A DNA stretch of 64,000 nt from Obrimoposthia wandeli (taxonomy: Eukaryota): contig CDROCS010004055.1 in assembly GCA_977020255.1 (NCBI GenBank), positions 124,001 to 188,000 of the forward strand, read 5' to 3'. Shown piece by piece: positions 5,373-43,100 of the stretch. The notes below the pieces were generated by a model that worked only from the letters and a program-made list of their open reading frames with translations, did not search any database and was not told where the DNA came from. Each line of letters starts with the position of its first letter. Position 1 is the first letter of the stretch. The position numbers and the translations under genes are program-made.

Positions 5373-5378
5373 GGCACA

Positions 5379-7123: not shown

Positions 7124-7160
7124 GGGCTATGGACCCCCAGTTACAAAAAAATAAATTAAG

Positions 7161-8324: not shown

Positions 8325-8552
8325 TTTCAAATTTTCGCAAAAACTATTGTTGGAAAGACAATAAAATTAGAACTAGAATCAGGTGAAACTATTGAAGATG
8401 TAAAGGTAAAGATTCAAGAAAAGGAAGGCATTCCGCCAGACAAACAACGGTTAATATTTGCAGGTAAGTAGCTTGAGGGTGGGCGCAATCTAGCAGATTA
8501 TGAGATACAGAGAGAAAATACCCTTCAGTTAGTACTAAGACTTAGAGGTGGG
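8325..8552 (+). pseudogene. Ubiquitin moiety, in frame with downstream gag
   Basis: [74 protein letters not shown]; same frame as ATG 8712. Confidence 0.93.
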
Positions 8553-13195: not shown

Positions 13196-13267
13196 AATGG
13201 CAGTTGTTAGGTCATCCTTTGTAGGGTTGACAAACCAGGAGATCGGGTTTGGTCAAGGCGAGGGGTG

Positions 13268-13525
13268 TGTTCTGACGTAGTAAAAATAATTTTGTAAATT
13301 TGTAGTAAATTTGTTGTTGTAATAAAATAATTTAAATAAGTAAGTTAGATAATCTGTTGTCAACATAGTTTATGCGTTTTGCAAATTGACAAAGTATAAA
13401 AAGTTGTATTTGTTTGAATATTGCTACGTAGGCATCGGTGATTTTGAAGATAGGGGAGTTTCAATAAAATAGTTGGATTATGTTGAATATGACTTTTGAA
13501 ATGCGAAAATCCGGCCCACCAAATA
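13268..13525 (+). repeat. 3' LTR, preceded by polypurine tract AAGGCGAGGGG
   Basis: Direct repeat of the 5' LTR with several substitutions and indels. Confidence 0.88.
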
Positions 13526-17511: not shown

Positions 17512-17767
17512 TATTCAGCAGGTTACCCGGTCATTTCTAGCTAGGATTGAATACTCGCTGATACTGCCATTGTAGCGCGTGTGCGGCCCCGGACATCTAA
17601 GGGCATCACAGACATGTTATTGCTCCATCTCATTTGGCTAAAAGCCATTGATTCCTCTAAGAAGTCCGTTTGTGCTACTTATCACACAAATACTATTTAG
17701 CAGCTTATAATCTTGTTCGTTATCGGAATTAACCAGACAAATCACTCCACCAACTAAGAACAGCCAT
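17512..17767 (-). rRNA. Isolated ~250-bp 18S rRNA fragment (pseudogene)
   Basis: Reverse complement contains TTCTTAGTTGGTGGAGTGATTTGTCTGGTTAATTCCGATAACGAAC and TCTGTGATGCCCTTAGATGTCCGGGGCCGCACACGCGCTACA. Confidence 0.92.
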
Positions 17768-18146
17768 CGAATTGTAACCAATGATGAAAAGTTGATTCAA
17801 TATAACAATCGACATCGGTCGGCTCAATGGGTTGATAAAAATGAACCTCCTATACACTTTCCAAAGCCTGAAGTTCACGAAAAGAAGATAATGTTTACTT
17901 TATGGTGGTCAGCAGCTGGTATTGTTCATTATAACTTTCTAAATTCTGGTGAAACTATTGATTTCGAAAAGTACTGTTTAGAAATAGAAGAAATGCATAG
18001 AAAATTGTTGATTAAACAACCTTCATTAATTAATAGAAAAGGTTCTATTATTTTACATGACAATGCTTTACCACATATTTCTAAAGTTACTAGTCTAAAG
18101 CTTAAACAACTTCGATGTGAAGTTTTAACTCACCCTCCGTATTCTC
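17768..18146 (+). pseudogene. Mariner (DD34D) transposase fragment
   Basis: RIVTNDEK...PKPEVHEKKIMFTLWWS...ILHDNALPH...HPPYS. Confidence 0.9.
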
Positions 18147-18307
18147 ATGTTCTTGGCAAAGTATATAATCTTCCTGTAGACCAGACGGCAGTAGATATTG
18201 AACTGTATCACCATTCAATGAAAATTCAAACAGACTATACAACAGCTGACGATTGCTGATCATTAGTGCCATATCACTAGTTAAAACTATAGCAACTTAT
18301 TCGTGAA

Positions 18308-20149: not shown

Positions 20150-20722
20150 TTAAAAATAAAAAATATTGGAAATATTTAATTAAATTGTATTGTACAATCC
20201 ATCAATTAATAACTTTGCGTAACATAAAATACATTTTATTCTTACCCTTTCACGAAATAGCATATTTCTAGACTAAATGTGTTAGTGTATTACAAAAATG
20301 ATATATGAAATCCATCGTCAGTGTCTTAAAATATCAATTTGGTAAAAAAATACATTTTGTAAACTCAAAATAACGATCTGGAAGGGACGAGATATTGAAG
20401 CTTGCACTAAATTTTGATGGGTCTAACTCGAATATTTGACTAAAATGAAAAATGTCTGGCTGGATTTTTCTGTTCGTGACGCTTCAAATTGTGTATTTTT
20501 CGTGTTTGTGCTATATCAGAGATGTCAATGGTCTCATCAAGAGCTATAGAAAAATGTTCAAATACCGATGATGTGGCCTTAAACTGTTGTTTTATGTCAT
20601 TTAACATTTAATCAATCCGTTCAGCAATATTATTGCTGGTTAATTAAATATCTTTGAAATTACATGTTTTTTTTTGTGAGCCGCAGATGTAGTTGTCTGG
20701 GGCCGCATGTTTGTCGTGCCTG
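20150..20722 (-). mobile_element. Internally deleted hAT (Buster/Charlie-like) remnant
   Basis: Minus strand: terminus CAGGCACGACAAACATGCGGCC, then DIKQQFK...FSIALDETIDISDIAQ. Confidence 0.7.
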
Positions 20723-22176
20723 AAATATAGTATGCTGCTTTTCAAATATGCTCATTGACAAGGACCTAGCTTATAATACAATTATATTTTCAGTAACTGG
20801 ACACCACATACCCGTGACATCAATCAATGAGTCAGCCAGTTGAGAATGAAGATTCTGATATTCGTGATTAAAAAATCCCACATGAAAATTGGTATATGTT
20901 TTACAGGTTATATACTACTGAATACCTATGGTAGACTGTGAACAACTAATATATTTGAAATTAATATTTTGAAATGATGTTTAGAACAAGAACGAATTTA
21001 TGTGTTGGAACCAGTGTTGTTACTTTTCTTATCGAAGACTCTAGCTCGTAAGTTCTTAAAAGTTTTTGCATGTTAAGGCATATCCTGGGTAGTCTCAAAA
21101 TCTGAAGGTTACATGGTTTTGTGTGCTAACAAAGGGTCGTAAAGAATTAAATACAATTTTTTACATAAAAGGTAAATCAACGACTATACAAATCTTAAAT
21201 AATTTTTACAAAATTTACAAACTTTTATAGTCCTTTACATAAATCGAAAGTATAAAAACGTTTACGTCGTAATGTCGTGTTATCAAAAAATGGGTTTGGG
21301 TATTTGATGTTAGAGTTGATGTCAAAGGGATTCGTGTGACTGACTACTATAGTCAGCCCGGGTCACCTGAGGCCATTCAACTCATTTTAAAATTTACTGA
21401 ATTCATTTTTTATTATTATTTCCGGCTTTTAATTAAATTTAATTTGTTCTTAATGTATCTTTGGCCAAGTATTTATATATAGCCAATTTCATTTAATTTT
21501 TTTAAATTAATTAATTGACCTCAACATCAACAAAAAGAGATTTTTTCATACTAACACATATTTGCAATTTCGAGTGTTTGTTAGGTTTAGTCCAGCCATT
21601 ATATAATAAAAACCAATCTTTAATGAAATGAAATTTGATTTTTGTTGTGGTTGTTAGAAATGAAGTTGAAATTGAATTTTAAAATAAATAACTTTTAGTA
21701 TAATCACTGAACAATTTTATCTTAATTTTGTAAATTATATGTAATCTTTCAACAATTGTAAAAGGATCAATTTGAAAAAGAAATAAATAAAAATTCACAA
21801 GAAAAAAAATGGAAAGCTTGTACAAGTGAAAGTAAATATTTATGAACTTATAAACTTGTGAAAAGACTCATTATTCTTTTTAATAAAATCCAACTTGAAC
21901 TCGGATAGATCTGGTAAATAATATCTAAAATAAAAGATCATAAACAAAGAAGTAATAAAAAAGAAGTGAGGAAAGATGGAAAGTAACTTGCAAAACAAAT
22001 ACAATCGATGCAAAACGTTTTGAGTGGTTTTGTATTAAACTTGCCAAGACTTTAGAGATAAAGGAAGGCAAGTCACTGTCCTTTAAAACCATCTGTGTCA
22101 GGTCTCGAGCATTTTCAGATAAGAAACACATTCACAATTTTAAATGACTGCTGACTTTCATTGGGACGAGTGAGAG

Positions 22177-22203
22177 TGGATTAGACCGGTACATTCATCT
22201 ACT
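22177..22203 (-). repeat. Isolated Polinton terminal tip of the element-1 family
   Basis: GTGGATTAGACCGGTACATTCATCTACT closely matches the element-1 end at 5344-5372. Confidence 0.7.
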
Positions 22204-22334
22204 AATCTTTCCTAATTTTTATATGTTAGTTGCCTTGATAGTTTGTCTCTTATGTGCTTCCGTCTGTAAAGATGAATTCTATACAACTTAAAATTTTGCT
22301 CATTTTTCGTCTTCTGAATTCCAGACTGTTCTAT

Positions 22335-23680
22335 AGTAGGTAGAAGGATGGAGTCTAGACCACTTGACCCCCCTAAAGGGTGTCACACCATAAGGATGTC
22401 TTGCCACACCATAAGAGTATATGTTGCCTCACCTCTGGTGAGGCACCATATACCCTTATGGTGTGGCAAGACATCCTTATGGTGTGACACCCTTTAGGGA
22501 GGAGGAGGGAGGGGAGGGGGAGGGGAGAGGGTGAGGGGGTCAAGTGATCTAGTCTCCACCCTTCTTTTGGCTAACTACTATGGTCGTCCATAATTCAAAG
22601 GGTCAAGTGGCTTAGTCTCCACCCTTCTTTTTGTGATATACCACTATGAAAGGGTCAAGTGGCTTAGTCTCCACCCTTCTTTTTGTGATCTAGTCTCCAC
22701 CCTTCTTTTTGTGGTCTAGTCTCCACCCTTCTTTTTGGCTAACCACTATGATCATCCATAATTCAAAGAGTCAAGTGGTCTAGTCTCCACCCTTCTTTGG
22801 TATACCACTATGATCGTCCATAATGAAAATTTATGCTAAAGTTCACTCTTATCAGTTAAGGAATGTGGTTTTTAACACACATACACTATTTTATGTGAAA
22901 TTTAGACTAAAGTTCACTCTTATCAGTTAAGGAATGTATTACGTAATCACACACATACTATTCTATGTGAAAATTTAGATCAAAGTTTTTTCCAGGCTTA
23001 CACATTTATAGAATTATGATAAAATTTCTTTAAATAACTTCAATTATATATTAAAATAAAAAAAATAAAATAAGAAAGAAGTCAGAGAATAATACAAAAT
23101 TAAACACATTTATTATGTAATTTCATAATATCATCTTCAAACTTAAGTGAATAACATTTACAAAGTAAGAAAGTCCATTCTTTATACATTCTTTTCGTTT
23201 CAACGACTAAGTTACAACGGAATTAATAGAAAAAGGAAAAAAAAAAACAACACTAAGTTTAACGCTATAAATGAAAATTAGTAAAAAAAAAAATATTAAT
23301 TTATTTGAATATTCGAATGTGAGTTTGAATAAATGAGAGTTAGAATGAATGTAAATGAATAAAATTATGCATGCAAGTATGAATGTCATTTACAAGTAAG
23401 AGTCTTAGCAAGTGAATGTAATTTTAAAATAAGAGTGTCGATAGTTTGATTGAATACAAGTATAATTTAGACTATAATTAAATTAAAATAAAGTTTTCGT
23501 TGAATAAATTATAGTTAGATTGAATGTAAATGAATACAAGTATGAATGCAAGTGAATGCTAGTATGAATTTCAATACAAGTAAGTGTCTTAGCAAGTGAA
23601 TGGAATTTAAAAATAAGAGTGTCGATAGTTTGATTGAATGCAAGTGTAATTTAGACTATAAGTAAATTAAAATAGAGTTT
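22335..23680. repeat. Left TIR (~1.05 kb unique plus ~1.7 inverted satellite-2 units)
   Basis: Reverse complement of ~31660-33073; differences are mostly homopolymer lengths and subterminal repeat number. Confidence 0.9.
22371..22499. other. 63-bp-stem hairpin, loop TCT, two stem mismatches
   Basis: 22371-22433 pairs with 22437-22499. Confidence 0.92.
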
Positions 23681-23690
23681 TTCCCGCCCA

Positions 23691-26600
23691 CTGCATATAA
23701 CATAAATTTCAAATATAAAGTACTATTAAGTTTATTATTTTGAATAGTAAATGTTTTTTCGAGTTATTTAATTTTGTTTACTAGACATTCGAAAATTTAC
23801 TTGTAAACTACAATATTTATTTGTTGTTGTATATATTTAGTTTAAAATGTTGTAAGTTATTACTTTAATATAATTTTCAACAAAAACTTCAAGTAGTTTA
23901 CTTATTAAACATAAGTTTAATGTTTTGTACAATAAATTGACTTGTAAACATAATTTATTTTGATATATTTTCAATTTAATATGTTGTAAGTTATTACTTT
24001 AATATAATTTACAACAAAAACTTCAAGTAATTTACTTGTAAACTACAATATTTATTTGTTGTTGTATATATTCAGTTTAAAATGTTGTAAGTTATTACTT
24101 TAATATAATTTTCAACAAAAACTTCAAGTAGTTTACTTATTAATCATAATATTAATGATTTGATCAATAAATTGACTTGTAAACATAATATAATTTGCAT
24201 ATTTTCAATTTAATATATTGTAAGTTATTACTATAATATTACATTACATAAAAAGTAATTGATAGTTTACTATCGTTTACAATAAATTGACTTGTAAACA
24301 TAATATAATTTGCATATTTTCAATTTAATATATTGTAAGTTATTACTATAATATTACATTACATAAAAAAGTAATTGATAGTTTACTATCGTTTACAATA
24401 AATTGACTTGTAAACATAATATATTTATGCATATATTCACTTTAATATGTTGTAAGTTATTACTTTATTATAATTTTCAACAAAAACTTCAAGTAGTTTA
24501 CTTATTAAACATAAGTTTAATGTTTTGTACAATAAATTGACTTGTAAACATAATTTATTTTGGTATATTTTCAATTTAATATGTTGTAAGTTATTACTTT
24601 AATATAATTTACAACAAAAACTTCAAGTAATTTACTTGTAAACTACAATATTTATTTGTTGTTGTATATATTCAGTTTAAAATGTTGTAAGTTAATACTT
24701 TAATATAATTTACAACCAAATCTTCAAGTACTTTACTTATTAATCATAATTTTAATGATTTGATCAATAAATTGACTTGTAAACATAATATAATTTGCAT
24801 ATTTTCAATTTAATATATTGTAAGTTAATACTGTAATATTTCATTACATAAAAAGTAATTCATAGTTTACTGTCGTTTACAATAAATTTACTTGTAAACA
24901 TAATATATTTATGCATATATTCACTTTAATATGTTGTAAGTTATTACTTTAATATAATTTTCAACAAAAACTTCAAGTAGTTTACTTATTAAACATAAGT
25001 TTAATGTTTTGTACAATAAATTGACTTGTAAACATAATTTATTTTGGTATATTTTCAATTTAATATGTTGTAAGTTATTACTTTTATATAATTTACAACA
25101 AAAACTTCAAGTAATTTACTTGTAAACTACAATATTTATTTGTTGTTGTATATATTCAGTTTAAAATGTTGTAAGTTATTACTTTAATATAATTTTCAAC
25201 AAAAACTTCAAGTAGTTTACTTATTAATCATAATATTAATGATTTGATCAATAAATTGACTTGTAAACATAATATAATTTGCATATTAAGAATTTAATAT
25301 AGTGTAAGTTATTACTGTAATATTACATACATAAAAAGTAATTGTAAGTTTACAATAAATTGACTTGTAAACATAATAATTTATAATTTTGTGTTATTAC
25401 TTTAATATAATTTTCAAAAAAACTTCAAGTAGTTTACCTATTAAAACTAAGTTTAATGGTTTTTACAATAAATTAACTTGTAAACATAATTTATTTTGGT
25501 ATATTTTCAATTTAATATGTTGTAAGTTATTACTTTAATATAATTTACAACAAAACTTCAAGTAATTTACTTGTAAACTACAATATTTATTTGTTGTTGT
25601 ATATATTTAGTTTAAAATGTTGTAAGTTATTACTTTAATATAATTTTCAACAAAAACTTCAAGTAGTTTACTTATTAAACATAAGTTTAATGTTTTGTAC
25701 AATAAATTGACTTGTAAACATAATTTATTTTGGTATATTTTCAATTTAATATGTCGTAAGTTATTACTTTAATATAATTTACAACAAAAACTTCAAGTAA
25801 TTTACTTGTAAACTACAATATTTATTTGTTGTTGTATATATTCAGTTTAAAATGTTGTAAGTTATTACTTTAATATAATTTACAACCAAAACTTCAAGTA
25901 ATTTACTTATTAATCATAATTTTAATGATTTGATAAATAAATTGACTTGTAAATATAATATAATTTGCATATTTTCAATTTAATATATTGTAAGTTAATA
26001 CTGTAATATTTCATTACATAAAAAGTAATTCATAGTTTACTGTCGTTTACTATAAATTTACTTGTAAACATAATATATTTATGCATATATTCACTTTAAT
26101 ACGTTTTAAGTTATTAGAATTTGTGTTCTTGTATTCAATGATTAACTTTTATTAAACTATTATATAACATTGAAATGTTTAAAATACTTGAGCAAAATAA
26201 ATTAATATAATAAAAGGATTTTAAAATGTATTTTAGTTTAAGATAAAAAATGAGGTTATACGAAGTTAATCTAGTTTAAAAAACAATTAATACCAAAATT
26301 ACTTACCAGAATGTGTAAACAACAGTAAACTATTATAACCTACAATAAAGAAACTATTGAATTATAATATAACCAATCGTATTCAGTAAGTGATAAATGT
26401 ACAAATCATTAATATTATGATTATTAAGTAAACTATTCGAAATGTTGTAAAAATCAAGAAATAAGTTAAAAATATTCATAGTTGAACAACTCATAACTGA
26501 AATTTACATTAGTTTAGTATTATATCAATCATATACCTATACGTTTTAAATAAAGTTACTTTTAAAAAAAAAAACCATTGATTTTAAGTATTTCATGTTA

Positions 26601-26921
26601 AACATTGGTTTTAAAGAAGAATTTAGCATTGCAATATCATAAATTAGATTTAATTTAACTATTTTTTATTTATTATTTGATAATTAACTTTTATATCGCT
26701 TTTAATTATTGAAATATCTACAAATTTTGTACAAGTACACAAGTTCGAATAACTTACAACATATTAAACTGAAAATATGCAACAAACAAAAAAATAATAT
26801 TATGTTTAGAAGTAAATTTTCGAATGTCTAGTAAACAAAATTAAATAACTCGAAAAAACATTTACTATTCGAAATAATAAACTTAATAGTACTTTATATT
26901 TGAAATTTATGTTATATACAG
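23691..26921. repeat. Nested inner inverted-repeat module (~170-bp arms) enclosing satellite 1
   Basis: 23691-~23855 is the reverse complement of ~26745-26921. Confidence 0.8.
23793..26115. repeat. Satellite 1: ~100-130-bp related subunits (core ACTTGTAAAC...TTGTAAGTTATTACT), ~20 copies with mixed higher-order blocks
   Basis: The AAACTACAATATTTATTTGTTG marker recurs at ~235-600-bp spacing. Confidence 0.88.
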
Positions 26922-27699
26922 CTACTAACTTTATAATTAAAATATTTTTATAGTTTAAGGTTAAAATCACTTGATAAAAACCACAATAATGTGGTAAAGA
27001 AATATTATTTAACATATAAAAGGAATTTTTGAAGAAATAAATTGAATATTCATATTATATTAATAAGACAATGGCAAAAATATCAAGTAATTAAAAAAAA
27101 ATTGTTTGTTGAGTTAATTTACTAAATTTGTATATATAAAAACAGTTTCGAATAGTTAAAAAGAGAAACGAATAATGATAATTTCAATTATATTTCCGAA
27201 TATAATTGTATAATCAAGTTATTTAAAAATAAAGAATTTAAATTTAACTAATTTTTTTAAAAATATTTCAATTAAGGAATTTTATCAAACGAGATAAGAC
27301 TTTTTAATTATTCAAATTCATTAATATATTTACTAATTTTCATTCATAATTGACATTCGTACTTGCATATTGCGTATTCTTTCTTACTTGTACTTGTAAC
27401 AGCATTCAATCATACTTGCATTCATTTACATTCAATTTAACTGTAATTTATTCAAACTATCTTTCAATTACATTCAAATACATTAATATTTTACTAATTT
27501 TCATTCATACTGTCAAATTTGGTGTTGTTTTCTATTAATCTTGCCATAACTTAGTCGTTCTAATTTTTTAACATACTTCAATATCACTGTTTCCTATAGT
27601 TGCTTACTTGTTATTAATCTAACTGTAACTTAACATAACTTTATTCATACTAAAACTCTATTTTAATTTATTTCTAGTCTAAATTACACTCTCATTCAA

Positions 27700-30600
27700 T
27701 CAAACTATCGACACTCTTATTTTCACTGTCACTCATTCATAGTTTTATATTTACTTGCTGAAACTCTTACTCGTATTTGCATTCACTTGAATGTATACTT
27801 GTATTCATTTACATTCAATCTAACTATAATTTATTCTACGAAAACTCTATTTTAATTTACTTATAGTCTAAATTACACTTGCATTCAATCAAACTATCGA
27901 CACTCTTATTTTATAAATTACATTCACTTGCTAAGACACTTACTTGTATTGAAATTCATACTATCATTCACTTGCATTCAATCTAACTATAATTTATTCA
28001 ACGAAAACTCTATTTAATTTACTTATAGTCTAAATTACACTTGCATTCAATCAAACTATCGACACTCTTATTTTTAAATTACATTCACTTGCTAAGACAC
28101 TTACTTGTATTGAAATTCATACTAGCATTCACTTGCATTCATACTTGCATTCAATCTAACTATAATTTATTCAACGAAAACTCTATTTTAATTTACTTAT
28201 AGTCTAAATTACACTTGCATTCAATCAAACTATCGACACTCTTATTTTATAAATTACATTCACTTACTAAGACACTTACTTGTATTGAAATTCATACTAT
28301 CATTCACTTGCATTCATACTTGCATTCAATCTAACTATAATTTATTCAACGAAAACTCTATTTTAATTTACTTATAGTCTAAATTACACTTGCATTCAAT
28401 CAAACTATCGACACTCTTATTTTTTAAATTACATTCACTTGCTAAGACACTTACTTGTATTGAAATTCATACTAACATTCACTTGCATTCATACTTGCTT
28501 TCAATCTAACTATAATTTATTCAACGAAAACTCTATTTTAATTTACTTATAGTCTAAATTACACTTGCATTCAATCAAACTATCGACACTCTTTTTTTTT
28601 TTTAAATTACATTCACTTGCTAAGATTCTTACTTGTAAATGACATTCATACTAGCATTCACTTGCATTCATACTTGTATTCATTTACATTCAATCTAACT
28701 ATAATTTATTCAACGAAAACTTTATTTTAATTTAATTATAGTCTAAATTACACTTGCATTCAATCAAACTATCGACACTCTTATTTTTTAAATTACATTC
28801 ACTTGCTAAGACACTTACTTGTATTGAAATTCATACTAACATTCACTTGCATTCATACTTGCATTCAATCTAACTATAATTTATTCAACGAAAACTCTAT
28901 TTTAATTTACTTATAGTCTAAATTACACTTGCATTCAATCAAACTATCGACACTCTTTTTTTTTTTAAATTACATTCACTTGCTAAGATTCTTACTTGTA
29001 AATGACATTCATACTAGCATTCACTTGCATTCATACTTGTATTCATTTACATTCAATCTAACTATAATTTATTCAACGAAAACTTTATTTTAATTTAATT
29101 ATAGTCTAAATTATACTTGTATTCAATCAAACTATCGACACTCTTATTTAAAATTACATTCACTTGCTAAGACACTTACTTGTATTGAAATTCATACTAG
29201 CATTCACTTGCATTCATACTTGCATTCAATCTAACTATAATTTATTCAACGAAAACTCTATTTTAATTTACTTATAGTCTAAATTACACTTGCATTCAAT
29301 CAAACTATCGACACTCTTATTTTTAAATTACATTCACTTGCTAAGATACTTACTTGTATTGAAATTCATACTAGCATTCACTTGCATTCATACTTGCATT
29401 CAATCTAACTATAATTTATTCAACGAAAACTCTATTTTAATTTACTTATAGTCTAAATTACACTTGCATTCAATCAAACTATCGACACTCTTATTTTTAA
29501 ATTACATTCACTTGCTAAGACACTTACTTGTATTGAAATTCATACTAGCATTCACTTGCATTCATACTTGTATTCAATCTAACTATAATTTATTCAATGA
29601 AAACTCTATTTTAATTTACTTATAGTCTAAATTACACTTGCATTCAATCAAACTATCGACACTCTTATTTTTTAAATTACATTCACTTGCTAAGACACTT
29701 ACTTGTATTGAAATTCATACTAACATTCACTTGCATTCATACTTGCATTCAATCTAACTATAATTTATTCAACGAAAACTCTATTTTAATTTACTTATAG
29801 TCTAAATTACACTTGCATTCAATCAAACTATCGACACTCTTATTTTTTAAATTACATTCACTTGCTAAGAAAACTTCTTACATTACACTTGCATTCAAAT
29901 ATCGACATTTTAATTTACATACTAAATTACACTTGCATTCACTTGCATTCATACTTGTATTCATTTACATTCAATCTAACTATAATTTATTCAACGAAAA
30001 CTTTATTTTAATTTAATTATAGTCTAAATTATACTTGTATTCAATCAAACTATCGACACTCTTATTTAAAATTACATTCACTTGCTAAGACACTTACTTG
30101 TATTGAAATTCATACTAGCATTCACTTGCATTCATACTTGCATTCAATCTAACTATAATTTATTCAACGAAAACTCTATTTTAATTTACTTATAGTCTAA
30201 ATTACACTTGCATTCAATCAAACTATCGACACTCTTATTTTTAAATTACATTCACTTGCTAAGATACTTACTTGTATTGAAATTCATACTAGCATTCACT
30301 TGCATTCATACTTGCATTCAATCTAACTATAATTTATTCAATGAAAACTCTATTTTAATTTACTTATAGTCTAAATTACACTTGCATTCAATCAAACTAT
30401 CGACACTCTTATTTTTAAATTACATTCACTTGCTAAGATACTTACTTGTATTGAAATTCATACTAACATTCACTTGCATTCATACTTGCATTCAATCTAA
30501 CTATAATTTATTCAACGAAAACTCTATTTTAATTTACTTATAGTCTAAATTACACTTGCATTCAATCAAACTATCGACACTCTTTTTTTTTTAAAATTAC

Positions 30601-31960
30601 ATTCACTTGCTAAGATTCTTACTTGTAAATGACATTCATACTAGCATTCACTTGCATTCATACTTGTATTCATTTACATTCAATCTAACTATAATTTATT
30701 CAACGAAAACTTTATTTTAATTTAATTATAGTCTAAATTATACTTGTATTCAATCTAACTATACACTCTTATGCATTACATTGAAATTCATACTAGCATT
30801 CACTTGCACATACTCTTTAATTCAACGAAAACTCTATTTTAATTTACTTATAGTCTAAATTACACTTGCATTCAAGACACTTACTTGCTAAGATTGTATT
30901 GAAATTCATACTAACATTCACTTGCATTCATACTTGCATTCAATCTAACTATAATTTATTCAACGAAAACTCTATTTTAATTTACTTATAGTCTCTAAAT
31001 TACACTTGCATACTCAATCAAACTATCGACACTCTAAATATTTTTCAAAACATTCACTTGCTATTACATTCATTTTCACTTGCATTCATACTTGCATTCA
31101 ACTATAATTTATTCAACGTCTATTTTAATTTAATACTTATAGTCTAAATTACACTTGCATTCAATCAAACTATCGACACTCTTTTTTTAAAATTACATTC
31201 ACTTGCTAAGATTCACTTGCATTCATACTAGCATTCACTTGCATTCATACTTGTATTCATTTACATTCAATCTAACTATAATTTATTCAACGAAAACTTT
31301 ATTTTAATTTAATTATAGTCTAAATTATACTTGTATTCAATCAAACTATCGACACTCTTATTTTAAAATTACATTCACTTGCTAAGACTCTTACTTGTAT
31401 TGAAATTCATACTAGCATTCACTTGCATTCATACTTGCATTCAATCTAACTATAATTTATTCAACGAAAACTCTATTTTAATTTACTTATAGTCTAAATT
31501 ACACTTGCATTCAATCAAACTATCGACACTCTTATTTTTAAATTACATTCACTTGCTAAGATACTTACTTGTATTGAAATTCATACTAGCATTCACTTGC
31601 ATTCATACTTGCATTCAATCTAACTATAATTTATTCAACGAAAACTCTATTTTAATTTACTTATAGTCTAAATTACACTTGCATTCAATCAAACTATCGA
31701 CACTCTTATTTTTATTTTTTTTAATTACATTCACTTGCTAAGACTCTTACTTGTAAATGACATTCATACTAGCATTCACTTGCATTCATACTTGTATTCA
31801 TTTACATTCAATCTAACTATAATTTATTCAACGAAAACTTTATTTTAATTTAATTATAGTCTAAATTATACTTGTATTCAATCAAACTATCGACACTCTT
31901 ATTTTAAAATTACATTCACTTGCTAAGACTCTTACTTGTAAATGACATTCATACTTGCAT
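27700..31960. repeat. Satellite 2: ~174-bp unit (longer ~186-bp variant), ~24 copies
   Basis: CAATCTAACT recurs at 29227, 29401 and 29575. Confidence 0.92.
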
Positions 31961-33073
31961 GCATAATTTTATTCATTTACATTCATTCTAACTCTCATTT
32001 ATTCAAACTCACATTCGAATATTCAAATAAATTAATATTTTTTTTACTAATTTTCATTTATAGCGTTAAACTTAGTGTTTTTTTTTTTTTCCTTTTTCTA
32101 TTAATTCCGTTGTAACTTAGTCGTTGAAACGAAAAGAATGTATAAAGAATGGACTTTCTTACTTTGTAAATGTTATTCACTTAAGTTTGAAGATGATATT
32201 ATGAAATTACATAATAAATGTGTTTAATTTTGTATTATTCTCTGACTTCTTTCTTATTTTATTTTTTTTATTTTAATATATAATTGAAGTTATTTAAAGA
32301 AATTTTATCATAATTCTATAAATGTGTAAGCCTGGAAAAAACTTTGATCTAAATTTTCACATAGAATAGTATGTGTGTGATTACGTAATACATTCCTTAA
32401 CTGATAAGAGTGAACTTTAGTCTAAATTTCACATAAAATAGTGTATGTGTGTTAAAAACCACATTCCTTAACTGATAAGAGTGAACTTTAGCATAAATTT
32501 TCATTATGGACGATCATAGTGGTATACCAAAGAAGGGTGGAGACTAGACCACTTGACTCTTTGAATTATGGATGATCATAGTGGTTAGCCAAAAAGAAGG
32601 GTGGAGACTAGATCACAAAAAGAAGGGTGGAGACTAAGCCACTTGACCCTTTCATAGTGGTATATCACAAAAAGAAGGGTGGAGACTAAGCCACTTGACC
32701 CTTTCATAGTGGTATATCACAAAAAGAAGGGTGGAAACTAAGCCACTTGACCCTTTCATAGTGGTATATCACAAAAAGAAGGGTGGAGACTAAGCCACTT
32801 GACCCTTTGAATTATGGACGACCATAGTAGTTAGCCAAAAGAAGGGTGGAGACTAGATCACTTGACCCCCTCACCCTCTCCCCTCCCCCTCCCCTCCCTC
32901 CTCCTCCCTAAAGGGTGTCACACCATAAGGATGTCTTGCCACACCATAAGAGTATATGTTGCCTCACCTCTGGGTGAGGCAACATATACTCTTATGGTGT
33001 GGCAAGACATCCTTATGGTGTGACACCCTTTAGGGGGGGGTCAAGTGGTCTAGACTCCATCCTTCTACCTACT
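31960..33073. repeat. Right TIR unique part, with 52-bp subterminal repeats and perfect 63-bp hairpin (32906-33035)
   Basis: Inverted copy of 22335-23385. Confidence 0.9.
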
Positions 33074-33789
33074 TTCTATCAATTTCAAAGTCGTGATTTA
33101 TTACTGAATCACAGTTACAACACACTTTAAATATGTTCGTTGTCGAGTTTAGACCATTCTTATATCTCAAGGCATTGAAAAGGTCTTCGGCTAAGACGCT
33201 TTATTTCTTGAAATTATTTCTTAATCTAACCTCATATGTATTCTTGGATGTTTTTTTCTTAAATGTAACGACTTTCGTTTACAATAACATCATAATTTCT
33301 TCATTCAATATCCATAGAAATTCTTTCAAAGTATAATTTGATATTTTTCAGTAATTTTTCGACCTTTCACTTTAGTTTTGCTCATTCGGTTGTAGTGTAT
33401 CTTTTTCACGAGATTTTTAGTTCTTACATTTATTAATTCGTTTTATCTGATTGACATTTTGAAGCAGTGGCGGTGCTAGACTCTTATAACAGACAGTATA
33501 TAGAGATCTTATTAAAATTCAAGATACTGTACTCAAAAATTACACTATTTAAAAGTCATAATTTACGCTTCTAAAAAAATCTGTTTGTTTGGTTGAAGTA
33601 GGTAGATGTGTGACTTCTGGAACAAAGCCCCCCCTCTGAGGACAAGTTGAGGTCAAAAAATGTAAGTCAAATTTTTGATGAGGACAAAATATTTAGCTCA
33701 AATTTTGGAAATTTGCGCGAAAATTTTGACATGTATATTGACATGTGAAGCGTAGGTAAACAACGGGAGTAATTATAACTTCCTGCAGG

Positions 33790-34312
33790 GGGCCCAAGAC
33801 GATATTTTTGGGTTACTGCGAAACTACGATACCAACGAGGAGTGCGCAAAAATACTATCTGGTATTATCGACAAACTTGTAATGTCAAAGAACAACACTA
33901 GTCTAGAGGAAGCAGCGGATTCGTATGCCAAAAATAAACCTTTTATCAACGATCGAACAGATTAGTTAGGAAATTTGAATAATGGTGGTCAGATTTCGAA
34001 ACTTTGACATGGACAGGAGGAGAAATCGTACCTGATAACCGACCTGCGGTCGGTTACGGGTAATGGGCGAAAAGGTGGCCCCGCTACAATCAAGACTGCC
34101 GAGGAGCCCAAAACTGTACCCGGCGATGACGTAAGAGTACTGAAATAGTACGCGGATCTAAGTTCCAATGACGAAAGAAGAATGGTGCACGACAAGGCTG
34201 ATAATCGTCTCATTCTGAGATACAATAAGAAGAAGAAACTTGCAAAGAAAGAAGAGAAAAGGAGCTTTTCTGGGAGAAGAGTTTTTTATTGTTTCTTAGT
34301 GGATGTATTATA
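33790..34312 (+). pseudogene. Degraded unknown ORF next to the left terminus
   Basis: Long frame (DDIFGLLRNYDTNEEC...KKKKLAKKEEKRS) broken by three stops; no family recognised. Confidence 0.35.
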
Positions 34313-34373
34313 ATAAAAAATTTTAAATAGTTTTGTCTTATAAACATTATCCCGAAAATCTAATATTTTTAAT

Positions 34374-35024
34374 ATGAACTTAAAAAATAATTCAGTTTTT
34401 CAGATTGTAGGTCCTAGTGGCAGTGGGAAACCTCATTTTATATGTAAGTTACTGCAAAATAATAAATACTTTACTTTTAAGTTTAATAAGATATATTGGC
34501 ATCAGGGAGGAGATGGAGAAGCCGGTTTAACCAGTAAAGAGTTTAAGAAAATTAAAAATATAAAAGTCATTAATGGATTTGATGATAATTGGTCTGAGCG
34601 ATTACAACGACATGATGTTATTGTTATTGATGATTTATATCAAGAAGCAAATAAAGAGAGTGATTAAAATAATTTATTCACTAAAATAGCACGACATCGT
34701 GACGTAACTGTTGTTTTCACAACACAAAATCTATTTCATCAAGGAGGGAACCATAGAACTCGTAATTTAAATGTACATTACCTTGTTCTCTTCAAGAATC
34801 CACGTGATCAGACGGTTGTTGATTTTGTTTCAAGACAAGCTTACCCGAATAATAGAAATTTCCTAATTGATTCATTTCAAGATGCAACTACTATTCCTCA
34901 TGGATACATTTTTATTGATTTTACTCAAGATTGTCCTGATGACTTTAGAGTTAGAACTGATATATTCAATTCATCAGGAATTACCGTCTATAAACAAACA
35001 AAGAAACCAGTTTCTCGAAGATGA
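34374..35024 (+). pseudogene. Packaging ATPase, premature TAA at 34665-34667
   Basis: GPSGSGKP and VIVIDD; collinear with 2201-2848. Confidence 0.9.
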
Positions 35025-35116
35025 ATTTTAAAAAGGAAACTGTTAAACCTGAAGTTAAAAAATTTATTAAATCAGTTTTAAGTGCAAGGAAAAATGGTTG
35101 CTCAAAAATCAAATAA
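35021..35116 (+). CDS. 31-aa basic peptide (homologue of 2053-2193)
   Basis: MNFKKETVKPEVKKFIKSVLSARKNGCSKIK*; ATGA overlap with the ATPase stop. Confidence 0.5.
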   Translation: MNFKKETVKPEVKKFIKSVLSARKNGCSKIK

Positions 35117-35168
35117 GAAAAGAACTGTTGTTTAAAAATCTAGGAGTATTGCTTATTTCAATTCTATC

Positions 35169-35450
35169 ATGCGTGCACCTGCTATTCGCCACCCAGCTAT
35201 TCTTAAATCATTCCCTACTTTTGTAATTGATGATTTACTTAATATGATACAGAAAATAGTTTCTGGTAAAATAATTGTCAAAGCTAGCATGAATCGGCAT
35301 AAGAAACCTCTACTTGCTTTGTTTCACACCAAAACACGAATCGGTAAACGTAAGTTGCTTTATAAGCAAAGTGGTGTATTTTTTGAATTTCTCGTACCAA
35401 TTATTAGCTCAATAGTTGATGCACGTGCTAGTAGACTAATAAAACGATGA
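35169..35450 (+). pseudogene. pX/pVI-like basic virion protein homologue
   Basis: FPTFVIDDLL...KQSGVFFEFLVPIISSIV aligns with 1692-2021. Confidence 0.65.
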
Positions 35451-35489
35451 TTATAAACATAAATTCGAATCAATAATATGAATTTATAT

Positions 35490-35735
35490 ATGGGATCACT
35501 TCCATCTATTCCTAAATTCAATATAAAAATCAAATCGTCTTGTTGTAATGGAGAAAATATGGTTCGATCCAAGTCACCCCGTTGGTTACACAGGGGTTTC
35601 AAAATTAGCAAAAGAACCAAAGAAGGGGGAAAATGTAAGTCAAGTGTGGTTGAGAAATCAATTAGCTTACAGCTTAAACAAACCAATGAAACGTCGGTTC
35701 TCAACGAGATCATACAAAACGAGCGGGCCAAATGA
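35490..35735 (+). CDS. Myristoylation-motif ORF overlapping the integrase start
   Basis: MGSLPSIPKFNIKIKSSCCNG, in the same position and frame relative to INT as in element 1. Confidence 0.5.
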   Translation: MGSLPSIPKFNIKIKSSCCNGENMVRSKSPRWLHRGFKISKRTKEGGKCKSSVVEKSISLQLKQTNETSVLNEIIQNERAK

Positions 35736-36573
35736 TTTATGGCAAGCACATTTGATGGAAATGATTCCATATGCGAGTATTAACGGTGGAAATCGATATA
35801 TTTTAACTTGTATTGATGTCTTTAGCAGATTCGAGCGAGCTATTCCATTAAAGTCTAAGTCTGGTACTGATGTTTTAGCCGCAATGAAGCTTTTGATTAA
35901 AGAAATAAAACCAAGAAATTTCCAAACGGATAATGGAAAGGAGTTTTATAATAAACATGTTAGTGCACTATTGAAAAAACATAATATTAATCATTACTCA
36001 GTATTTTCCCAATATAAATCTGCTTTATTTGAACGTTTTAATCGAACATTGAGATATCGATTGAAAATGTATTTCACAAAGCAGGGAAATAAGTCCTGGG
36101 TCACTGTTTTACCTCAAATAATACATGCATACAATCATAGCGAACACTCACCATTAGATCGAAAGAGACCTGTTGATGTTACAGATGAGAATGCTATGGA
36201 AATTTGGCAACGCCGTAACCAAAGTCAAGTTGTAAAGAAACCCAAGTATAAAGTTTGTGATTATGTACGTATTTCTCGAATTAGTACTATTCCTTTTATA
36301 AAGAATTTCAAAGAGAATTGGAGCGATGAAGTATTTCGTATAACTAAAATTGATAATAAACATGTGCCGGTAATGTATTTCATTGAGGATGAGAGCAATA
36401 ATGTAATCACAGGTAAATTTTATCACAAGGAATTACAAGTCTTGCCAGAGAAACCAAATGTATATAGAATTCAAGAAATCTTAGAGACAAAAGGTAGAGG
36501 AAAGCATAAACAATATCGTGTTAAGTGGCATGGATAAACTGAACCTAGTTGGATATTAGTTTCTCAAATATAA
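35548..36573 (+). pseudogene. Integrase plus chromodomain; first catalytic Asp replaced (WQAHL), stop at 36535-36537
   Basis: Collinear with the element-1 integrase; frame continues TEPSWI after the stop. Confidence 0.9.
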
Positions 36574-36581
36574 TTAACTCA

Positions 36582-37594
36582 ATGTATGTTGTATTACCAA
36601 GTAATGGTTCGCCATTAACTCAGCCGAATAATACTGCTAATAGTTTTAGTATTGATTATCAAAGTTCAATCAACTTGCCTGGTGCTTGGAAAGCTGCTCT
36701 TACGGATTTTTCTTTCAATTACTCTCCTCTATCTATTCAAAGTGAAACTGAGATTGAATATATTACTCATCAAGAAGCTGATAAAGTAACTGATGTGACT
36801 TTACTATTTGATAAGGGTTAAATGGATTTGGCTCGTATTAAGGCAGGAGATGATTTCACAATCTTTTTAAATAAAGAGAATCGAATTCAAATTATAGGAA
36901 AAAGGGATTATTTTGAAATTGTTTTTAGTGATGAGATTGTTGCACAACAATATGGATTTCCAACTAACGTTGGAAAAGGAAAGCATGTGCTTTCGGGAAT
37001 TATAGATAAACATGTCAAGTATCCGATAATTACATTCAAGATAATAAGCAGATTCACTAAACGCGAGAGGAAAATATATTCAGTTCCCAATGATTTTCTT
37101 TTTTCCATAGTGGAAGCATGTGTAAACATGTTAAAACAGTGTTACCAAATGTATTTGAAAACTTTAAACTAGTTAATAAATTGATTCATTTCAAATTGAA
37201 ATCAAATATTGATAAAGTTGTCATGGATAAATCATTAGCCTCAATTATCGGTTTTTATGAAAATGAATTTGAAAATTAAAATGAGGTTTTCAAAGCAAAG
37301 ATTATTCCTAAAATAACTAATGCATATAATCAAATTTATATTTACACGAACATTACTGAACCAATATTCGTAGGAGGAAGTAAACTTTCCTTAATAAAAG
37401 CAATTTGGGTTCAACAGGAAAAACACAAGTATGGTGATGTTATACATATTCCAATTGAAAATCCACTGTATATTCCAGTGAGTTCTTCTTCTATAAACAA
37501 TATTGAAGTTAATATACGTAATGATTCTGGAAGATTAATTATATTTGCTTACGGAGCTAAAACAAGTTTAACGGTTCATTTTCGTAAATTATGA
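36582..37594 (+). pseudogene. Minor capsid (penton-like) protein, frameshifted
   Basis: N-terminal YVVLPSN; C-terminal IYIYTNITEPIFVG...NPLYIPV...IEVNIRNDSG...TVHFRKL. Confidence 0.82.
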
Positions 37595-37956
37595 ATGATT
37601 CAAGTATAATCGATGCGTATAGTAATCCAATGCAAGGAGGTGATTTGCCTTATTTTGTGGGAAAACAGTATGGATCAGGATGGCTGAAGGTTTTTGGTCG
37701 TTTTGCTTTCCCACTACTCAAGCAACTCGGGAAATCTATTGCTAATGTTGGATCAAAATACTTGTCTGGGGATGAGAAATTTCTTCCCACACTAAAGGAT
37801 GCAGCCTTGGATCAGGTCAATGAAATTTCGTCAAGTCTAACTGAATTTTTGAAAAAGAAAACTCAAAAGGGAAATGGTTATAAACGTAAGAAAACATCTA
37901 AAGCATCGGGTATAAACAAACGTTTGAAACTAAGTGGAACAATTTTTAAGCAATGA
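37591..37956 (+). CDS. Small virion protein with QxGxG motifs and amphipathic helix (pVI-like candidate)
   Basis: QYGSGWLKVFGRFAFPLLKQLGKSIANVG...QKGNGYKRKK. Confidence 0.65.
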   Translation: MNDSSIIDAYSNPMQGGDLPYFVGKQYGSGWLKVFGRFAFPLLKQLGKSIANVGSKYLSGDEKFLPTLKDAALDQVNEISSSLTEFLKKKTQKGNGYKRKKTSKASGINKRLKLSGTIFKQ

Positions 37957-39146
37957 GTTGTGCTAAAACTGAATTGTGTATATTCGATAAACCTATACCC
38001 CAGGTTGTGGTTGATAGTGCTAGTTTTGAAGAAAATTTTCCCGACAAATACGGTTAACGGGACATCTTCTCCGGATTTAGAATTCAATATAAATGGATCC
38101 AATACTCAATATCTTGATTTGAATAATAGTTTATTTCTCGTTAAATTGAAAGTTACAAAGGAAGGAGGTGATTTGGATGATGATTTGGATATCAAATCAG
38201 CTAATTTCATGTTGCATACTATTTTCAAGGATGGGATTCTCAGTCTCAATAATGTGAAAGTTGAGGGAAATAATACTAGTTACACTCATAAAGCAATGAC
38301 TGAAACATTACTGAATTACGGTAATGATACGAAATTAATCTTGATGCAATTGGGTTTGATGATGATGAAAAAAGAAGAACTGCTTCGATTGCAAAGTCTA
38401 AAGTATTGTCACTTCGTGGGAGTCTCCATTTGTATTTATTTAAGCAACCAAAGTATCTTTTACCCGGTGTAAGTGCACATATTCGAATGAAGATAAATCC
38501 AGTAGGTTTTAGTGTTGTTTGCGCCGATACTATTAAAGCAGCAATTGAGATTACGGAAGCAAAACTGCTGGTTCGTAGAGTAAAGGTGGAACCATCTGTA
38601 CTCGTTGCACATCGAATGGGGTTGGAGAAGCAAAATGCATGTTATCCTATTATAAAAACTAATCTTGTTTCTCATGCTATCCCTACGGGAGCACTATCTT
38701 ATTACAAGGATCAGATTTTTGGTAATATGCAACTTCCAAACTTTGTTTTAATTGCTTTCCAAAACACTTCTACCTATGGAGGTGAGTCTAAAAATGAGGT
38801 TTCTCAATTTCGACTCATGCATGTGAGTTCAATTAAACTTGCACGAAATATTGATTATCAAGAATCTTATACGAATGACTTTGAAAATAATGATTATGTG
38901 TTTTCTTATGTGCAATCTTTAATTAGAAATCTTGGTCGTTTGGATAAGGATGCTAATATTGGAATTTCCATGACTGATTTCAAGGACAAGTATACACTGT
39001 TAACATTTGTTATCTCTCCTGATTTTGATATAAATCAAGCTCAAATCCTTAAACAGGGAAATTTGAAAGTAGAAATCAAGTTTTCAAAATCACTTGAACA
39101 TCCTGCTAATATTATAATCTATGGAGTATTTGATTCTGAGGTTCAA
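37953..39146 (+). pseudogene. Major capsid protein (double jelly-roll), frameshifted, C-terminus lost
   Basis: MSCAKTEL...LEFNINGSNTQYLDL...LRGSLHLYLFKQPKYLLPGV...GNLKVEIKFSKSL. Confidence 0.88.
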
Positions 39147-39461
39147 AGCGGAAGAAAACTACTAGGTTCGCGTTTCAATGGAGTCCACAGTCTTGATCAT
39201 ATTCCCTCTTTGACTCGTTTAAGTGGATATGTAATCAATACACATTCATCTAATCTGCGTGGCGAACAATGGATTGCAATACATGTTAAAGAAAATGAAA
39301 TCTTTGTTTTTGACCCCTTTGGGATATATTACCCTTCTAAATTAGTATCTACAGTACTTGACTCTGGAAAGAAAGTACATTTTAGTAAGAAACATTATCA
39401 AAATGTTTTAACACAGTCATGTGGACAACTCTGTCTGCTCTGGTTAAAGCATAAACAATAG
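39147..39461 (+). pseudogene. Adenain-like cysteine protease, fused in frame to the MCP remnant; catalytic His replaced (GEQW)
   Basis: FNGVHSLD...VINTH...GEQWIA...FDPFG...QNVLTQSCGQLC. Confidence 0.85.
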
Positions 39462-39498
39462 ATATAAACAAATTCAAATAAAATTATTGCTATAAAAA

Positions 39499-40010
39499 AT
39501 GTCTGTTTATTTTCTTGATTTTGAAGCTTTTATTGATAACAATACTGAGTTTGTAATAAAGGAACTATGTATAATGGATTTGGATGCAATCTTCTATCCT
39601 AAACATTATGTTTTTAAAATGCAACCTATATGGAGTATGATGAATAGAAAATCAAGAAAAATAAATAGATATCTCATCAAGCATTACCATCGACTAAAAC
39701 TAGTTTATAGTAATAGTTATTTCAAGATATAGGATATAACTCAGGAAATAAACGTTGTTGTGATCTATCCAAATCAATTTTCTTTGTTTTGGATGAATAT
39801 AATGGAGCTAAAATAAAGACAATCAGTAAATATTTTCCTGAAATATTTAGACTGATAAATTACTCGAAAACATTAAAACAATTAAATCCATCAAATATCA
39901 ATTGTCCATATATCAAACATGGAGAGCATTGTGCATACAAGAAATGCTTTGCAGCTAGTTTGGATTATTTAAATATAAATGAAAAATCAACTACTCACAT
40001 TAATCAGTGA
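39499..40010 (+). pseudogene. DEDD-fold (DnaQ/Maelstrom-like) nuclease, frameshifted
   Basis: FLDFEAF...FVIKEL...HYHRL...CPYIKHGEHCAY. Confidence 0.65.
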
Positions 40011-40153
40011 ACTAATTTCCATTCTGATTTGTTTTAAATGAATCTGGTTGGTTTAAATAATGAATGATTTTGATTGGCTTAATACTAGCTCGAAAGTAGT
40101 ATATAAGCAAGCATCAATCAACAAATAACTATCTATTATAAACGAAATTGAAA

Positions 40154-43100
40154 ATGGTAAGTTTCTTGTTATTTCTAGATTTATTATATTTCTTTCTAGA
40201 ATTGCAATATGAATAAACAATTATGCTTCAATGAGAGTCACAAGGAATGTGACTGGAAAATGAAAAGCTATTGTGGGCAGAAGTTCAATGGACAACTCTA
40301 CTACGTATGTCCAGTATGTCTCTCCGCGGAGGAGATTGATTGGGTGGAGTTTGTGGCGCGCCATCGCACCTATCATCGCCATTTCCAGCAACATGGTAAG
40401 AAGGCCATCTTCCAGGATAGAGCTCATACTGCTTCTCCTGCTACCATTTCTCAAGATCGGGTTGCTGCTCCAGTTGCTTCATTAGTTACTGCTTCGTCCC
40501 CAGATACTGCTTCTTTGCCAGTTACTGCTCCAATTGTTGCTCCAGTATCTACTCTAATTGCTGTTGTCCCAGTTGCTGCACCCATTGCTGCACCCTCTAC
40601 TATGCTTCAAGTTATGCCTCCTCCAGTTGGTATGATCTCTGTGCCGTTACCAGCATCTACCCGCAAGAGAGGTGTTATTCCCACTTCAGGTAGCTCTGTT
40701 GCGAAGTTGCCCAGGGTTAATGCTGTTAAGCGAAAAACTAGTCTTCGGGGCACGATTGAGACATTGTCATTAGATGTTTCTAATGACAATGTCATCGATT
40801 TACAAGTTCCTGTATCACTTTTGATTAGCTTAAGGGACACAGTCAGCAAGTTTGCGACTTACAAGGTTCAATTCGGGGTGCGTGTTGAATTTTCCAATAT
40901 TGGAGAAACACGTGCTGGGAAATTTTCCAATAGAAGGCTCTCCATAGATGAGAAATTTATAGATGCGGGAGTAGATGGGATCAACAAGAAGATTGAGAAT
41001 TATTACCAAAGTAGCAGTAATTGGGTAGTAAACCGCTTCCTGGAGATTTCGTTTGTTGTGACTAAAACAACTCCTGGGGAGTAGTTATGTACTTAATCCA
41101 TCTGAGTTAGCACTCTCACATTGCGTTATCAATATGCAGAACTTTAACACTTTTTGCTTCCTTTATAGTATCTTATCTGTACTTTTCCGCGAAGTATTTC
41201 GCTCTAATCCTCATCGGGTTAATCAATATGATGCCCTGGTGAGTCAATTAGGTTTTGATGAGAATGAGATGCCAATGCGTCTATGTAATATACCACGATT
41301 TGAGAGAAAGAATCCATCTCTCTCAATCAATGTATTTACATTCAATAAGTTCTCTAATGTGCAAACAGATATGGATATCTTCCAAAAATCCGTATGTGGA
41401 TGTCATTTACAGAACCACAAACCCAGACGCTAAGGCAATCAATCTTCTCCTTTTAGAAAATAATGATAATTTTCATTATCTTGGTATTCCTAAACTCCAT
41501 AGGCTGCTTAATTATAGGAACAGAGGTGTATCTAATCGCATCCAGTGTACTTGGTGCCATAAGTGTCTCCATGGATTCCGGAGACCAATAAGTTATGCCA
41601 AACACGTTCCGATCTGTAGGATGAATTTAGATCATACAACACTTTATTCAATGCCTACAGGGAAGCATATTGAGTTTAAGGACTTTTCAAAAACGATTTC
41701 TCCGCCTTTTGCTGTTTACGCGGACTTTGAAGCTGTGCTGCCGCCACATGGAATCCATCATCAGATTCAGCTTCCAATCTCTGCCGGTATGCTCATGTCT
41801 CCCGTTGCAGCTACGACAGGGTACACACATGAATACTCGGTCTTTACCGGGGAATCTTGTGTGGTATCCTTTTTGCAGAAATTAGAGGACTTGACGAAAG
41901 AGGTTGTTCTCCCATGCAAAAACATGCAATCGAGGTGATGCGACAACTTACACGGGAACAGGTATCGAGTTTCAATGACGCAAGAATCTGTTACCTGTGT
42001 AAGAAGAAACTCACAAAGAAAGTTCGAGATCATGATCACATGACTGGCGAATACCTGGGAGCAGCGCATACGAAATGCAACTTATCAAGGAGAATCTATC
42101 GATCTTTTCCCGTCATTTTTCATAATCTGATGGGTTATGATATGCACCACATATTGAAGCACGCACTGTGCAAGTTTCCTGACTGGAATGTCTCTGTTAT
42201 ACCTCAATCAACAGAGAAATTCCAGGCTATGATGGTGTATATTGGAGGAGTCTGTATACGTTTCATCGATTCCCTTCAATTTTTGAACAGCAGCTTAGAA
42301 TAACTTGTGGAAAACATGGGTGTGACTCCTCTTACACATTCAGTCTTCCCGCAACATCTGGTGAGCACTAAGGGCATCTTCCCATACGATATGGCAGTAT
42401 CAGAGACTGCTCTTCGTGCAATCACCAGCTTACCGCCAAAGTGGGATGAGAAGATCAAGCCAGCACAATATGAGATGGCGAAGATGGTCTGGACTCAGAG
42501 TGGCTGTTCATCGCTCTGGGACTATATGCTGGTCTATATGAAGATGGACGTCTACCTTCTAGCATATGTGTTTACATAATTCCGGAACAAGGCCATTGCT
42601 GACGATGGATTGGAGCCACTCAATTTCTTCTCCATCCCTGATTTGTATTTTATTAATTTTCACCAAGTAAATTTTTATTAAGTAACTTTTCACAAAGTAA
42701 TGATTTTCACAATGATTTTAATAAATGTTTTATTTCCAGGACTGACATTCGCGAGTGCTTTTAAATTCCTGCTTCGCCCGGATTCTTCTTCTTCTGCTCC
42801 TCCTGTACGAGTCGAGCTAATACAGGATCCAGAAATGTATCATCTTTTCCGCTCCGGGATTCGCGGGGGTATGACCTTCGTCAATGAACACCGCGTGGAC
42901 GCCATCAATGGTACATAACTTTGTACGTTGATGTAAACAATTTGTACGGGTGGGCTATGTCCCAGTTTTTACCTTGTGGTAACTTTTCCTGGGTGACTGA
43001 TCAATTAGAATTGGGAAATATTATTTCCAGCTTAAAATCAGCAGATTTATCCTGTAGTCGCTTATTTATTGGAAATAGATTTATCGATTCCCAATGAGCT

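Follow-up and report, generated by a model that had tools for sequence, protein, structure and literature searches.

A gene-free, satellite-filled foldback element of 10.7 kb with Polinton-type ends in Obrimoposthia wandeli

Polintons, also called Mavericks, are recognised by a 6-bp target-site duplication (TSD), by ends that in vertebrates have the form (AGT)2 or (AG)3, and by terminal inverted repeats (TIRs) that range there from 46 to 1,447 bp, as described in PMC8097293. The 6-bp length is given as characteristic of the group (PMC10045372; PMC8097293), and general background can be found in PMC6431247, bioRxiv 2024.01.15.575659, bioRxiv 2023.08.22.554363 and PMC12628747. Here we describe an element with a scar and ends of this type that carries no genes. 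It occupies positions 22335-33073 of a 64,000-nucleotide (nt) stretch of the Obrimoposthia wandeli genome (assembly GCA_977020255.1, contig CDROCS010004055.1, positions 124,001 to 188,000 of the forward strand), which we call the window and to which all coordinates below refer. In the reading that we prefer, with a probability of about 0.6, it is a non-autonomous element of the Polinton/Maverick type with a Tetris-like foldback build, recently inserted in its gene-free form by the integrase of a helper.

Autonomous Polintons and Mavericks, which are adintovirus-like elements, have in common with the element the 6-bp TSD, the AGT-type ends and TIRs of up to about 1.45 kb. They differ from it in their genes and in size, with intact vertebrate copies of 12.7-24.6 kb as against 10.7 kb (PMC8097293). 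A gene-poor class of Polintons of such a size is already known from zebrafish. Seven Maverick families are listed for this species, three with an "N" in their names and four autonomous ones of 16,276-20,287 nt (PMC9341512); the former, Polinton-4N1_DR, -2N1_DR and -1N1_DR, are 10,436, 11,092 and 15,469 nt long and are present in 1,874-5,744 copies (PMC9341512, supplement 3). In Repbase-style names the "N" stands for non-autonomous, a convention that is stated for the IS481EU families (PMC10045372). These families resemble the element in their Polinton class and their length of 10-15 kb, and the table describes them by name, length, divergence and copy number. Polinton-1N1_DR is also named in PMC9341505, and a capsid-encoding Polinton-N1A_NV in PMC11296320. 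Relatives without the polymerase have been described as well: Tlr1 of Tetrahymena has been called a non-autonomous Polinton (PMC5499653), and polB-less Polintons nonetheless amplified in a butterfly (bioRxiv 2025.02.07.637071). Tlr1 and the lepidopteran elements retain many genes, whereas the element here has none. A lizard survey reports no non-autonomous Polintons (PMC3014272). A wholly gene-free, satellite-filled and hairpin-bearing derivative is not described in the literature that we searched; Repbase entries, which lay outside that search, may hold one.

The other closely comparable systems are the foldback elements. Tetris of Drosophila virilis has long modular TIRs, AT-rich tandem repeats that gave rise to satellite arrays and a non-coding middle, and no helper was found for it (PMC4079207); extra transposase sites in Galileo are cited in the same paper. 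The long modular TIRs, internal tandem repeats and non-coding middle of Tetris and the other foldbacks (FB, Galileo) are all found in the element. Tetris, however, makes TSDs of 8-9 bp and has no link to Polintons (PMC4079207), while the element has a 6-bp TSD and ends that match those of Polintons. It thus probably functions as a non-autonomous Polinton while having the construction of a foldback, and it is not an autonomous Polinton. Its hairpin-and-satellite build is unusual.

The element is real, gene-free, repetitive DNA of 10,739 nt with a GC content of 24.5%, and arms or satellite make up 85% of it. It starts with AGTAGGTAGAAGG at 22335 and ends with CCTTCTACCTACT at 33073. Its outer parts are as follows.

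22329-22334 (+): left copy of the TSD, TTCTAT, a 6-bp direct repeat
33074-33079 (+): right copy of the TSD, TTCTAT, a 6-bp direct repeat
22335-23681 (+): left arm, a long TIR of 1,347 nt that stops abruptly inside a 175-bp satellite unit
31641-33073 (-): right arm of 1,433 nt, continuing into the 175-bp array
22335-22374 (+): Polinton-like terminal 40 nt, a putative origin and integrase site, matching both neighbouring Polinton ends at 20 of 30 positions

Among duplication lengths of 2-11 bp that were tried, a direct repeat appeared at 6 only. Fixed ends would be flanked by a 6-bp match by chance with a probability of 5e-4, and the element's ends form the sole AGTAG...CTACT pair in the window with a 6-bp duplication. 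The arms, whose lengths fall within the vertebrate Maverick range given above, differ by 12 substitutions over 1,343 aligned positions and by seven gaps, one of them 78 nt long. Five of the substitutions lie in the hairpin centre, three in positions 126-1234 and four in the last satellite unit. Mid-arm divergence is 0.3%, as against 20-30% in parts of the interior, a contrast more in keeping with a body whose evolution was gene-free and which was mobilised as a whole. The exact termini, the TTCTAT duplication and the near-identical arms, all named in the original prediction, were borne out by the scan of lengths and the arm alignment.

The link of the element to Polintons is well supported by comparison of its termini with those of its neighbours, which are the following.

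1-5372 (-): Polinton-1, with an rve integrase, an A32-type ATPase and a TBP-like frame; one end at 5372
33597-43500 (+), right coordinate approximate: broken Polinton-2, whose far end was not found in the window
22175-22203 (-): solo Polinton-like end remnant, closest to the end of Polinton-1 and 131 nt to the left of the element, with no partner end in the window

When the terminal 30-mer was slid over 106,338 positions outside the element, only two reached 20 of 30, the next best having 18. These two, both matched without gaps, are the ends of Polinton-1 (5372) and Polinton-2 (33597), and the first 10 nt of the element are the first 10 nt of Polinton-2. Of 300 shuffled 30-mer queries, 15% produced one or more positions at 20 anywhere in the window and 2% produced two or more. 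With the first 7 nt dropped, nt 8-40 still resembled Polinton-1 (p 0.001), Polinton-2 (p 0.0003) and the remnant at 22203 (p 0.002) more than shuffles did. The end motif AGTAGG agrees with (AGT)2 at five of six positions and is identical in both neighbouring Polintons. The proposed alignment of the termini with both neighbours therefore stands, at 20 of 30 each and with the ten shared nucleotides of Polinton-2, and insertion by Polinton-type chemistry is well supported by the 6-bp TSD, the AGTAGG ends and the terminal similarity over about 40 nt.

The claim that the element lacks genes was confirmed. It holds 36 stop-to-stop frames of at least 50 amino acids, the longest of 82, and the longest ATG-started frame has 69. 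Comparison by tblastn of 142 proteins (22 from the window and 120 integrase homologues) with the element gave no match at E 0.01, tblastx of the element against the rest of the window gave none, and none of three element frames matched Pfam. In particular, no pPolB, rve integrase, ATPase, protease or capsid gene was found in it by frames, tblastn or tblastx. Rfam returned no match inside the element at the gathering score; its 12 sub-threshold matches are each under the cut-off of their family, and all of them lie on hairpins. Hidden coding or RNA genes were accordingly set aside after the frame, tblastn, tblastx, Pfam and Rfam searches, and so was a reading as a ribozyme-bearing retrozyme or a microRNA, the Rfam matches being all sub-threshold.

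It had also been claimed that removing the element with one TSD copy restores an open frame on the minus strand. This frame is real but short, with 42 open codons to one side of the site and 10 to the other when the flanks are read separately. It is uninformative, since in non-coding controls from two regions of the window a stop-free frame of at least 52 codons, in any of the six, covers 58-63% of positions. The 42-codon piece has no Pfam match and a single marginal match among 1.84 billion proteins (E 5.9e-4, with no passing stretch), and the empty-site frame was discarded as evidence.

Behind its ends the element carries a set of structured and repeated motifs.

22371-22499 (+): left subterminal hairpin with two stem mismatches and the loop TCT; z -14.9, with 0 of 200 shuffles as stable
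32906-33035 (-): right subterminal hairpin with a perfect 63-bp stem and a 4-nt loop; z -19.0
22497-22525 (+): G-rich purine tract behind the hairpin, with a mirror copy at 32880-32908; these are the sole matches to the G-quadruplex pattern in the window
22537-22796 (-): four inverted copies of the 29-nt terminal motif in the left arm, within 26/52-bp repeats
32531-32868 (+): six inverted copies of the 29-nt terminal motif in the right arm, from a motif scan
22824-22987 (+): 71-bp repeat, about 2.3 copies, with a mirror copy at 32350-32503

The hairpins are about 130 nt each and begin 37 nt in from the element end. The next-best perfect stem in the window has 15 bp, as against 63 bp in the right hairpin. 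The 29-nt terminal motif has 12 matches when the termini are counted and none in 100 shuffles, none being expected. The two hairpin loops, each read from its own arm end, are reverse complements of one another and so form a direct repeat within the inverted repeat. In parvoviruses and poxviruses the hairpin loops occur in two orientations, flip and flop, at opposite ends. The loop inversion of the element, seen in one copy and alternatively a polishing error, resembles such flip/flop isomers. The hairpin of the element differs from the viral ones in being subterminal, from 37 nt in, so that it forms neither a covalently closed nor a priming end.

The interior is made up largely of satellite DNA and of a second, older foldback.

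23325-23681 (-): two inverted 175-bp satellite units in the left arm, from repeat alignment
27631-32006 (+): 175-bp satellite array of about 25 units (23 anchors found), with a mean pairwise identity of 94.6% and a range of 79-100%
23793-26116 (+): second satellite, with 20 anchor sites, monomers of 93-141 nt, and higher-order repeats of 235 and 484 nt
23683-23690 (no strand): GC-rich 8-nt filler at the junction of the left arm and the inner unit, likely a rearrangement scar
23691-26926 (no strand): nested 3.2-kb foldback with inverted arms at 23691-23808 and 26804-26921, 97% identical over 118 nt
27267-27566 (+): old direct copy, at 68%, of the right arm inner section 31807-32118; 0 of 200 block shuffles reach its score

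Further in, the arms of the nested foldback are decayed and of weaker similarity, with 0 of 200 shuffles reaching their score. Its right end reads AGTAG from the outside, which has a frequency of 7e-4 per position and was spotted post hoc; its left end has the 8-nt GC-rich filler in place of AGTAG, and its nt 8-40 have no resemblance to the outer end (p 0.53). That the nested foldback represents a second Polinton-ended family is thus suggestive only, as judged from its sequence. No TSD was found at a plausible place in the window for the nested foldback, the remnant end or Polinton-2. The body looks far older than the last copying of the arms because arm positions 126-1234 have three substitutions, as against the 68% of the old direct copy, the 79% within the satellite array and the decayed inner arms of the nested foldback. 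A common origin of the two satellites was considered and is unsupported, its score being equalled in 14 of 200 shuffles. BLAST at relaxed settings also matched the element to AT-rich DNA outside it at 58-66%, which was treated as composition noise; shuffle controls covered five pairs.

How could such an element move? In our preferred reading, a helper family of Polintons elsewhere in the genome would supply the integrase, and the element would be inserted as a gene-free unit at a 6-bp stagger. The terminal 40 nt and the ten inverted subterminal copies of the end motif may be binding sites for the helper's integrase, for origin-binding proteins or for both; the repeated motifs would then play a part like that of the extra transposase sites in Galileo. 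Adenovirus-type replication is protein-primed copying from the ends. By analogy with it, the protein-primed PolB of the helper would copy a linear form of the element from its ends, and the 1.35-kb arms may stay uniform by pairing with each other. The inversion of the hairpin loop would then be the footprint of a template switch or of recombination, and the satellites may have expanded inside the arms by unequal exchange, as has been put forward for Tetris. Packaging forms no part of this explanation.

Several observations weigh against this reading. The window of 64 kb contains one copy of the element; two scans of bacterial and archaeal genomes with it gave no matches, a result uninformative on copy number. 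AGTAGG, common as it is to both neighbours, is not the vertebrate (AGT)2 or (AG)3. The two neighbours share a partial similarity over about 40 nt with the arm, and neither shares the arm beyond it; no partner emerged from this comparison, and the two were ruled out as direct parents. Their ends fold weakly (z -0.8 and -2.3) with no strong long hairpin, and they have no inverted copies of their own end motif, the best being 15-16 of 31. They were also placed by position, with one end each in the window and no TSD that could be checked. A rearrangement, recorded in the abrupt junction at 23682-23690, could have cut out genes after insertion, and the identity of the arms may be upheld by gene conversion, so that it gives no sure date of insertion. 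The likeness to a defective-interfering genome drawn in the original prediction extends to helper dependence and is otherwise weak: compared with the two neighbouring Polintons, the body shows no detectable interior homology of the kind that derivation from a helper genome by deletion would leave.

The main rival is a different history, which we regard as possible but less likely. The element could be a one-off wreck of an autonomous Polinton with long, satellite-bearing arms, whose genes were later deleted in place and whose gene-free form never moved. The arm breaks off in mid-unit and is followed by the filler, with the left end of the inner unit lost; gene conversion could account for the uniform arms, and the single copy fits a wreck as well. 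So does the setting, a window crowded with broken Polinton pieces, given that 96% of vertebrate Maverick loci are degraded according to PMC8097293. Against this history, no Polinton frame can be traced across the 10.7 kb, the arms are far better preserved than the broken Polinton genes next to them, and the autonomous parent would need to have carried old DNA of the satellite and foldback kinds amounting to about 8 kb.

It is also conceivable, though in our judgement unlikely, that the element, besides being integrated, is copied and packaged by a helper, an animal's endogenous Polinton virus of which it would be the gene-free satellite. Satellite DNA may then serve as stuffer that keeps the element above the size floor of a capsid, the flip/flop hairpin may be the trace of copying by way of hairpins, and the nested foldback with its AGTAG end may represent a second family built to the same plan. 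The one observation that speaks for it is of size: neither the element nor any of the three zebrafish N families is shorter than 10.4 kb, and the zebrafish ones have 51-84% of the length of their named partners. According to PMC8097293, no Polinton virion had been observed.

Mobilisation by an unrelated cut-and-paste transposase, with the element an ordinary foldback or a giant miniature inverted-repeat transposable element and the likeness to Polinton ends due to chance, is quite improbable. The build does match that of Tetris, with a flanking domain, an outer domain of tandem repeats and a non-coding middle, and IS3EU and GingerRoot elements likewise produce 6-bp TSDs (PMC10045372). Yet Tetris differs in the TSD length noted above; IS3EU and GingerRoot, which agree in that length, have termini of the TA..TA or TG..CA type (PMC10045372) and not the AG..CT of the element; and Ginger1 and Ginger2, with TGT termini (TGTNR) and TSDs of 4-5 bp (PMC2836005), agree in neither. 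The similarity to the local Polintons, moreover, reaches nt 40.

An assembly artefact, in which a palindromic or chimeric join mirrored one arm, can hardly be credited: the arms are nearly identical, many of their differences are homopolymer lengths, satellite arrays are hard to assemble, and a polishing error might by itself account for the loop inversion, but the flanks show no mirror symmetry and a direct 6-bp repeat instead, the arms differ by the 78-nt change in repeat number and by satellite unit variants, and the mirror starts exactly at the Polinton-type end.

We know of no study in which the cis requirements for Polinton movement have been mapped. If a gene-free family still moves, as the preferred reading would have it, the 40-nt end, the repeated inverted motifs and the hairpin would constitute the minimal cis signals. 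The length distribution of such a family would offer an indirect, computational probe of size-selective passage through a capsid in Polinton movement, and Polintons would count among the elements in which satellite DNA arises and by which it is spread. Were packaging to take place, particles could carry satellite DNA between genomes. As a single wreck, the element would be nothing out of the ordinary in a region rich in transposons.

The four Polinton-type elements lie within 34 kb and hence form a Polinton-rich cluster. The integrase of Polinton-1 has 837 homologues, and many among the matches listed have rve plus chromo domains. The TBP-like frame of Polinton-1 (3187-3594, -; Pfam TBP E 2.5e-11) lies between its end and its ATPase. 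A 25-bp tandem repeat at 5251-5313 is subterminal in Polinton-1, so this gene-bearing neighbour, too, has subterminal repeats. At 5372 the end of Polinton-1 directly adjoins a fragment of broken PolB (5373-5950, +) from another Polinton, as would be expected of an insertion boundary, an arrangement that suggests a nested insertion. Polinton-2 has an integrase and PolB2 by Pfam, an ATPase collinear with that of Polinton-1 by tblastx, a double-jelly-roll capsid-like protein (Atlas score 0.97), and an adenain-like protease with a weak adenovirus-protease match under the Pfam cut-off; its capsid/protease frame has no sequence match in PDB. Its PolB region (41833-42303, +) also gives a weak endonuclease VII-like match (E 2e-4) below the cut-off.

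The rest of the window contains remnants of other repeats. At 6846-13523 lies a decayed BEL/Pao retrotransposon with a Pao peptidase and long terminal repeats (LTRs) of about 257 nt that are 88% alike; it has captured pieces of EF1-gamma (7347-7655) and of glutamate dehydrogenase (7900-8364). An 18S rRNA fragment (Rfam) is directly joined to a mariner transposase fragment at 17606-18259. A short frame at 20440-20607 (-), without a Pfam match, looks by eye like a remnant of a hAT-type transposase. A tandem array at 54520-64000 has a unit of about 1,146 bp in at least eight copies of about 98% identity; the one frame scanned has no Pfam match, and the frames of the array resemble, to the eye, a decayed Tc1/IS630-type transposase. 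Two direct repeats at 52098-52293 and 53782-53978, of about 196 nt and 83% identity, are possibly old LTRs.

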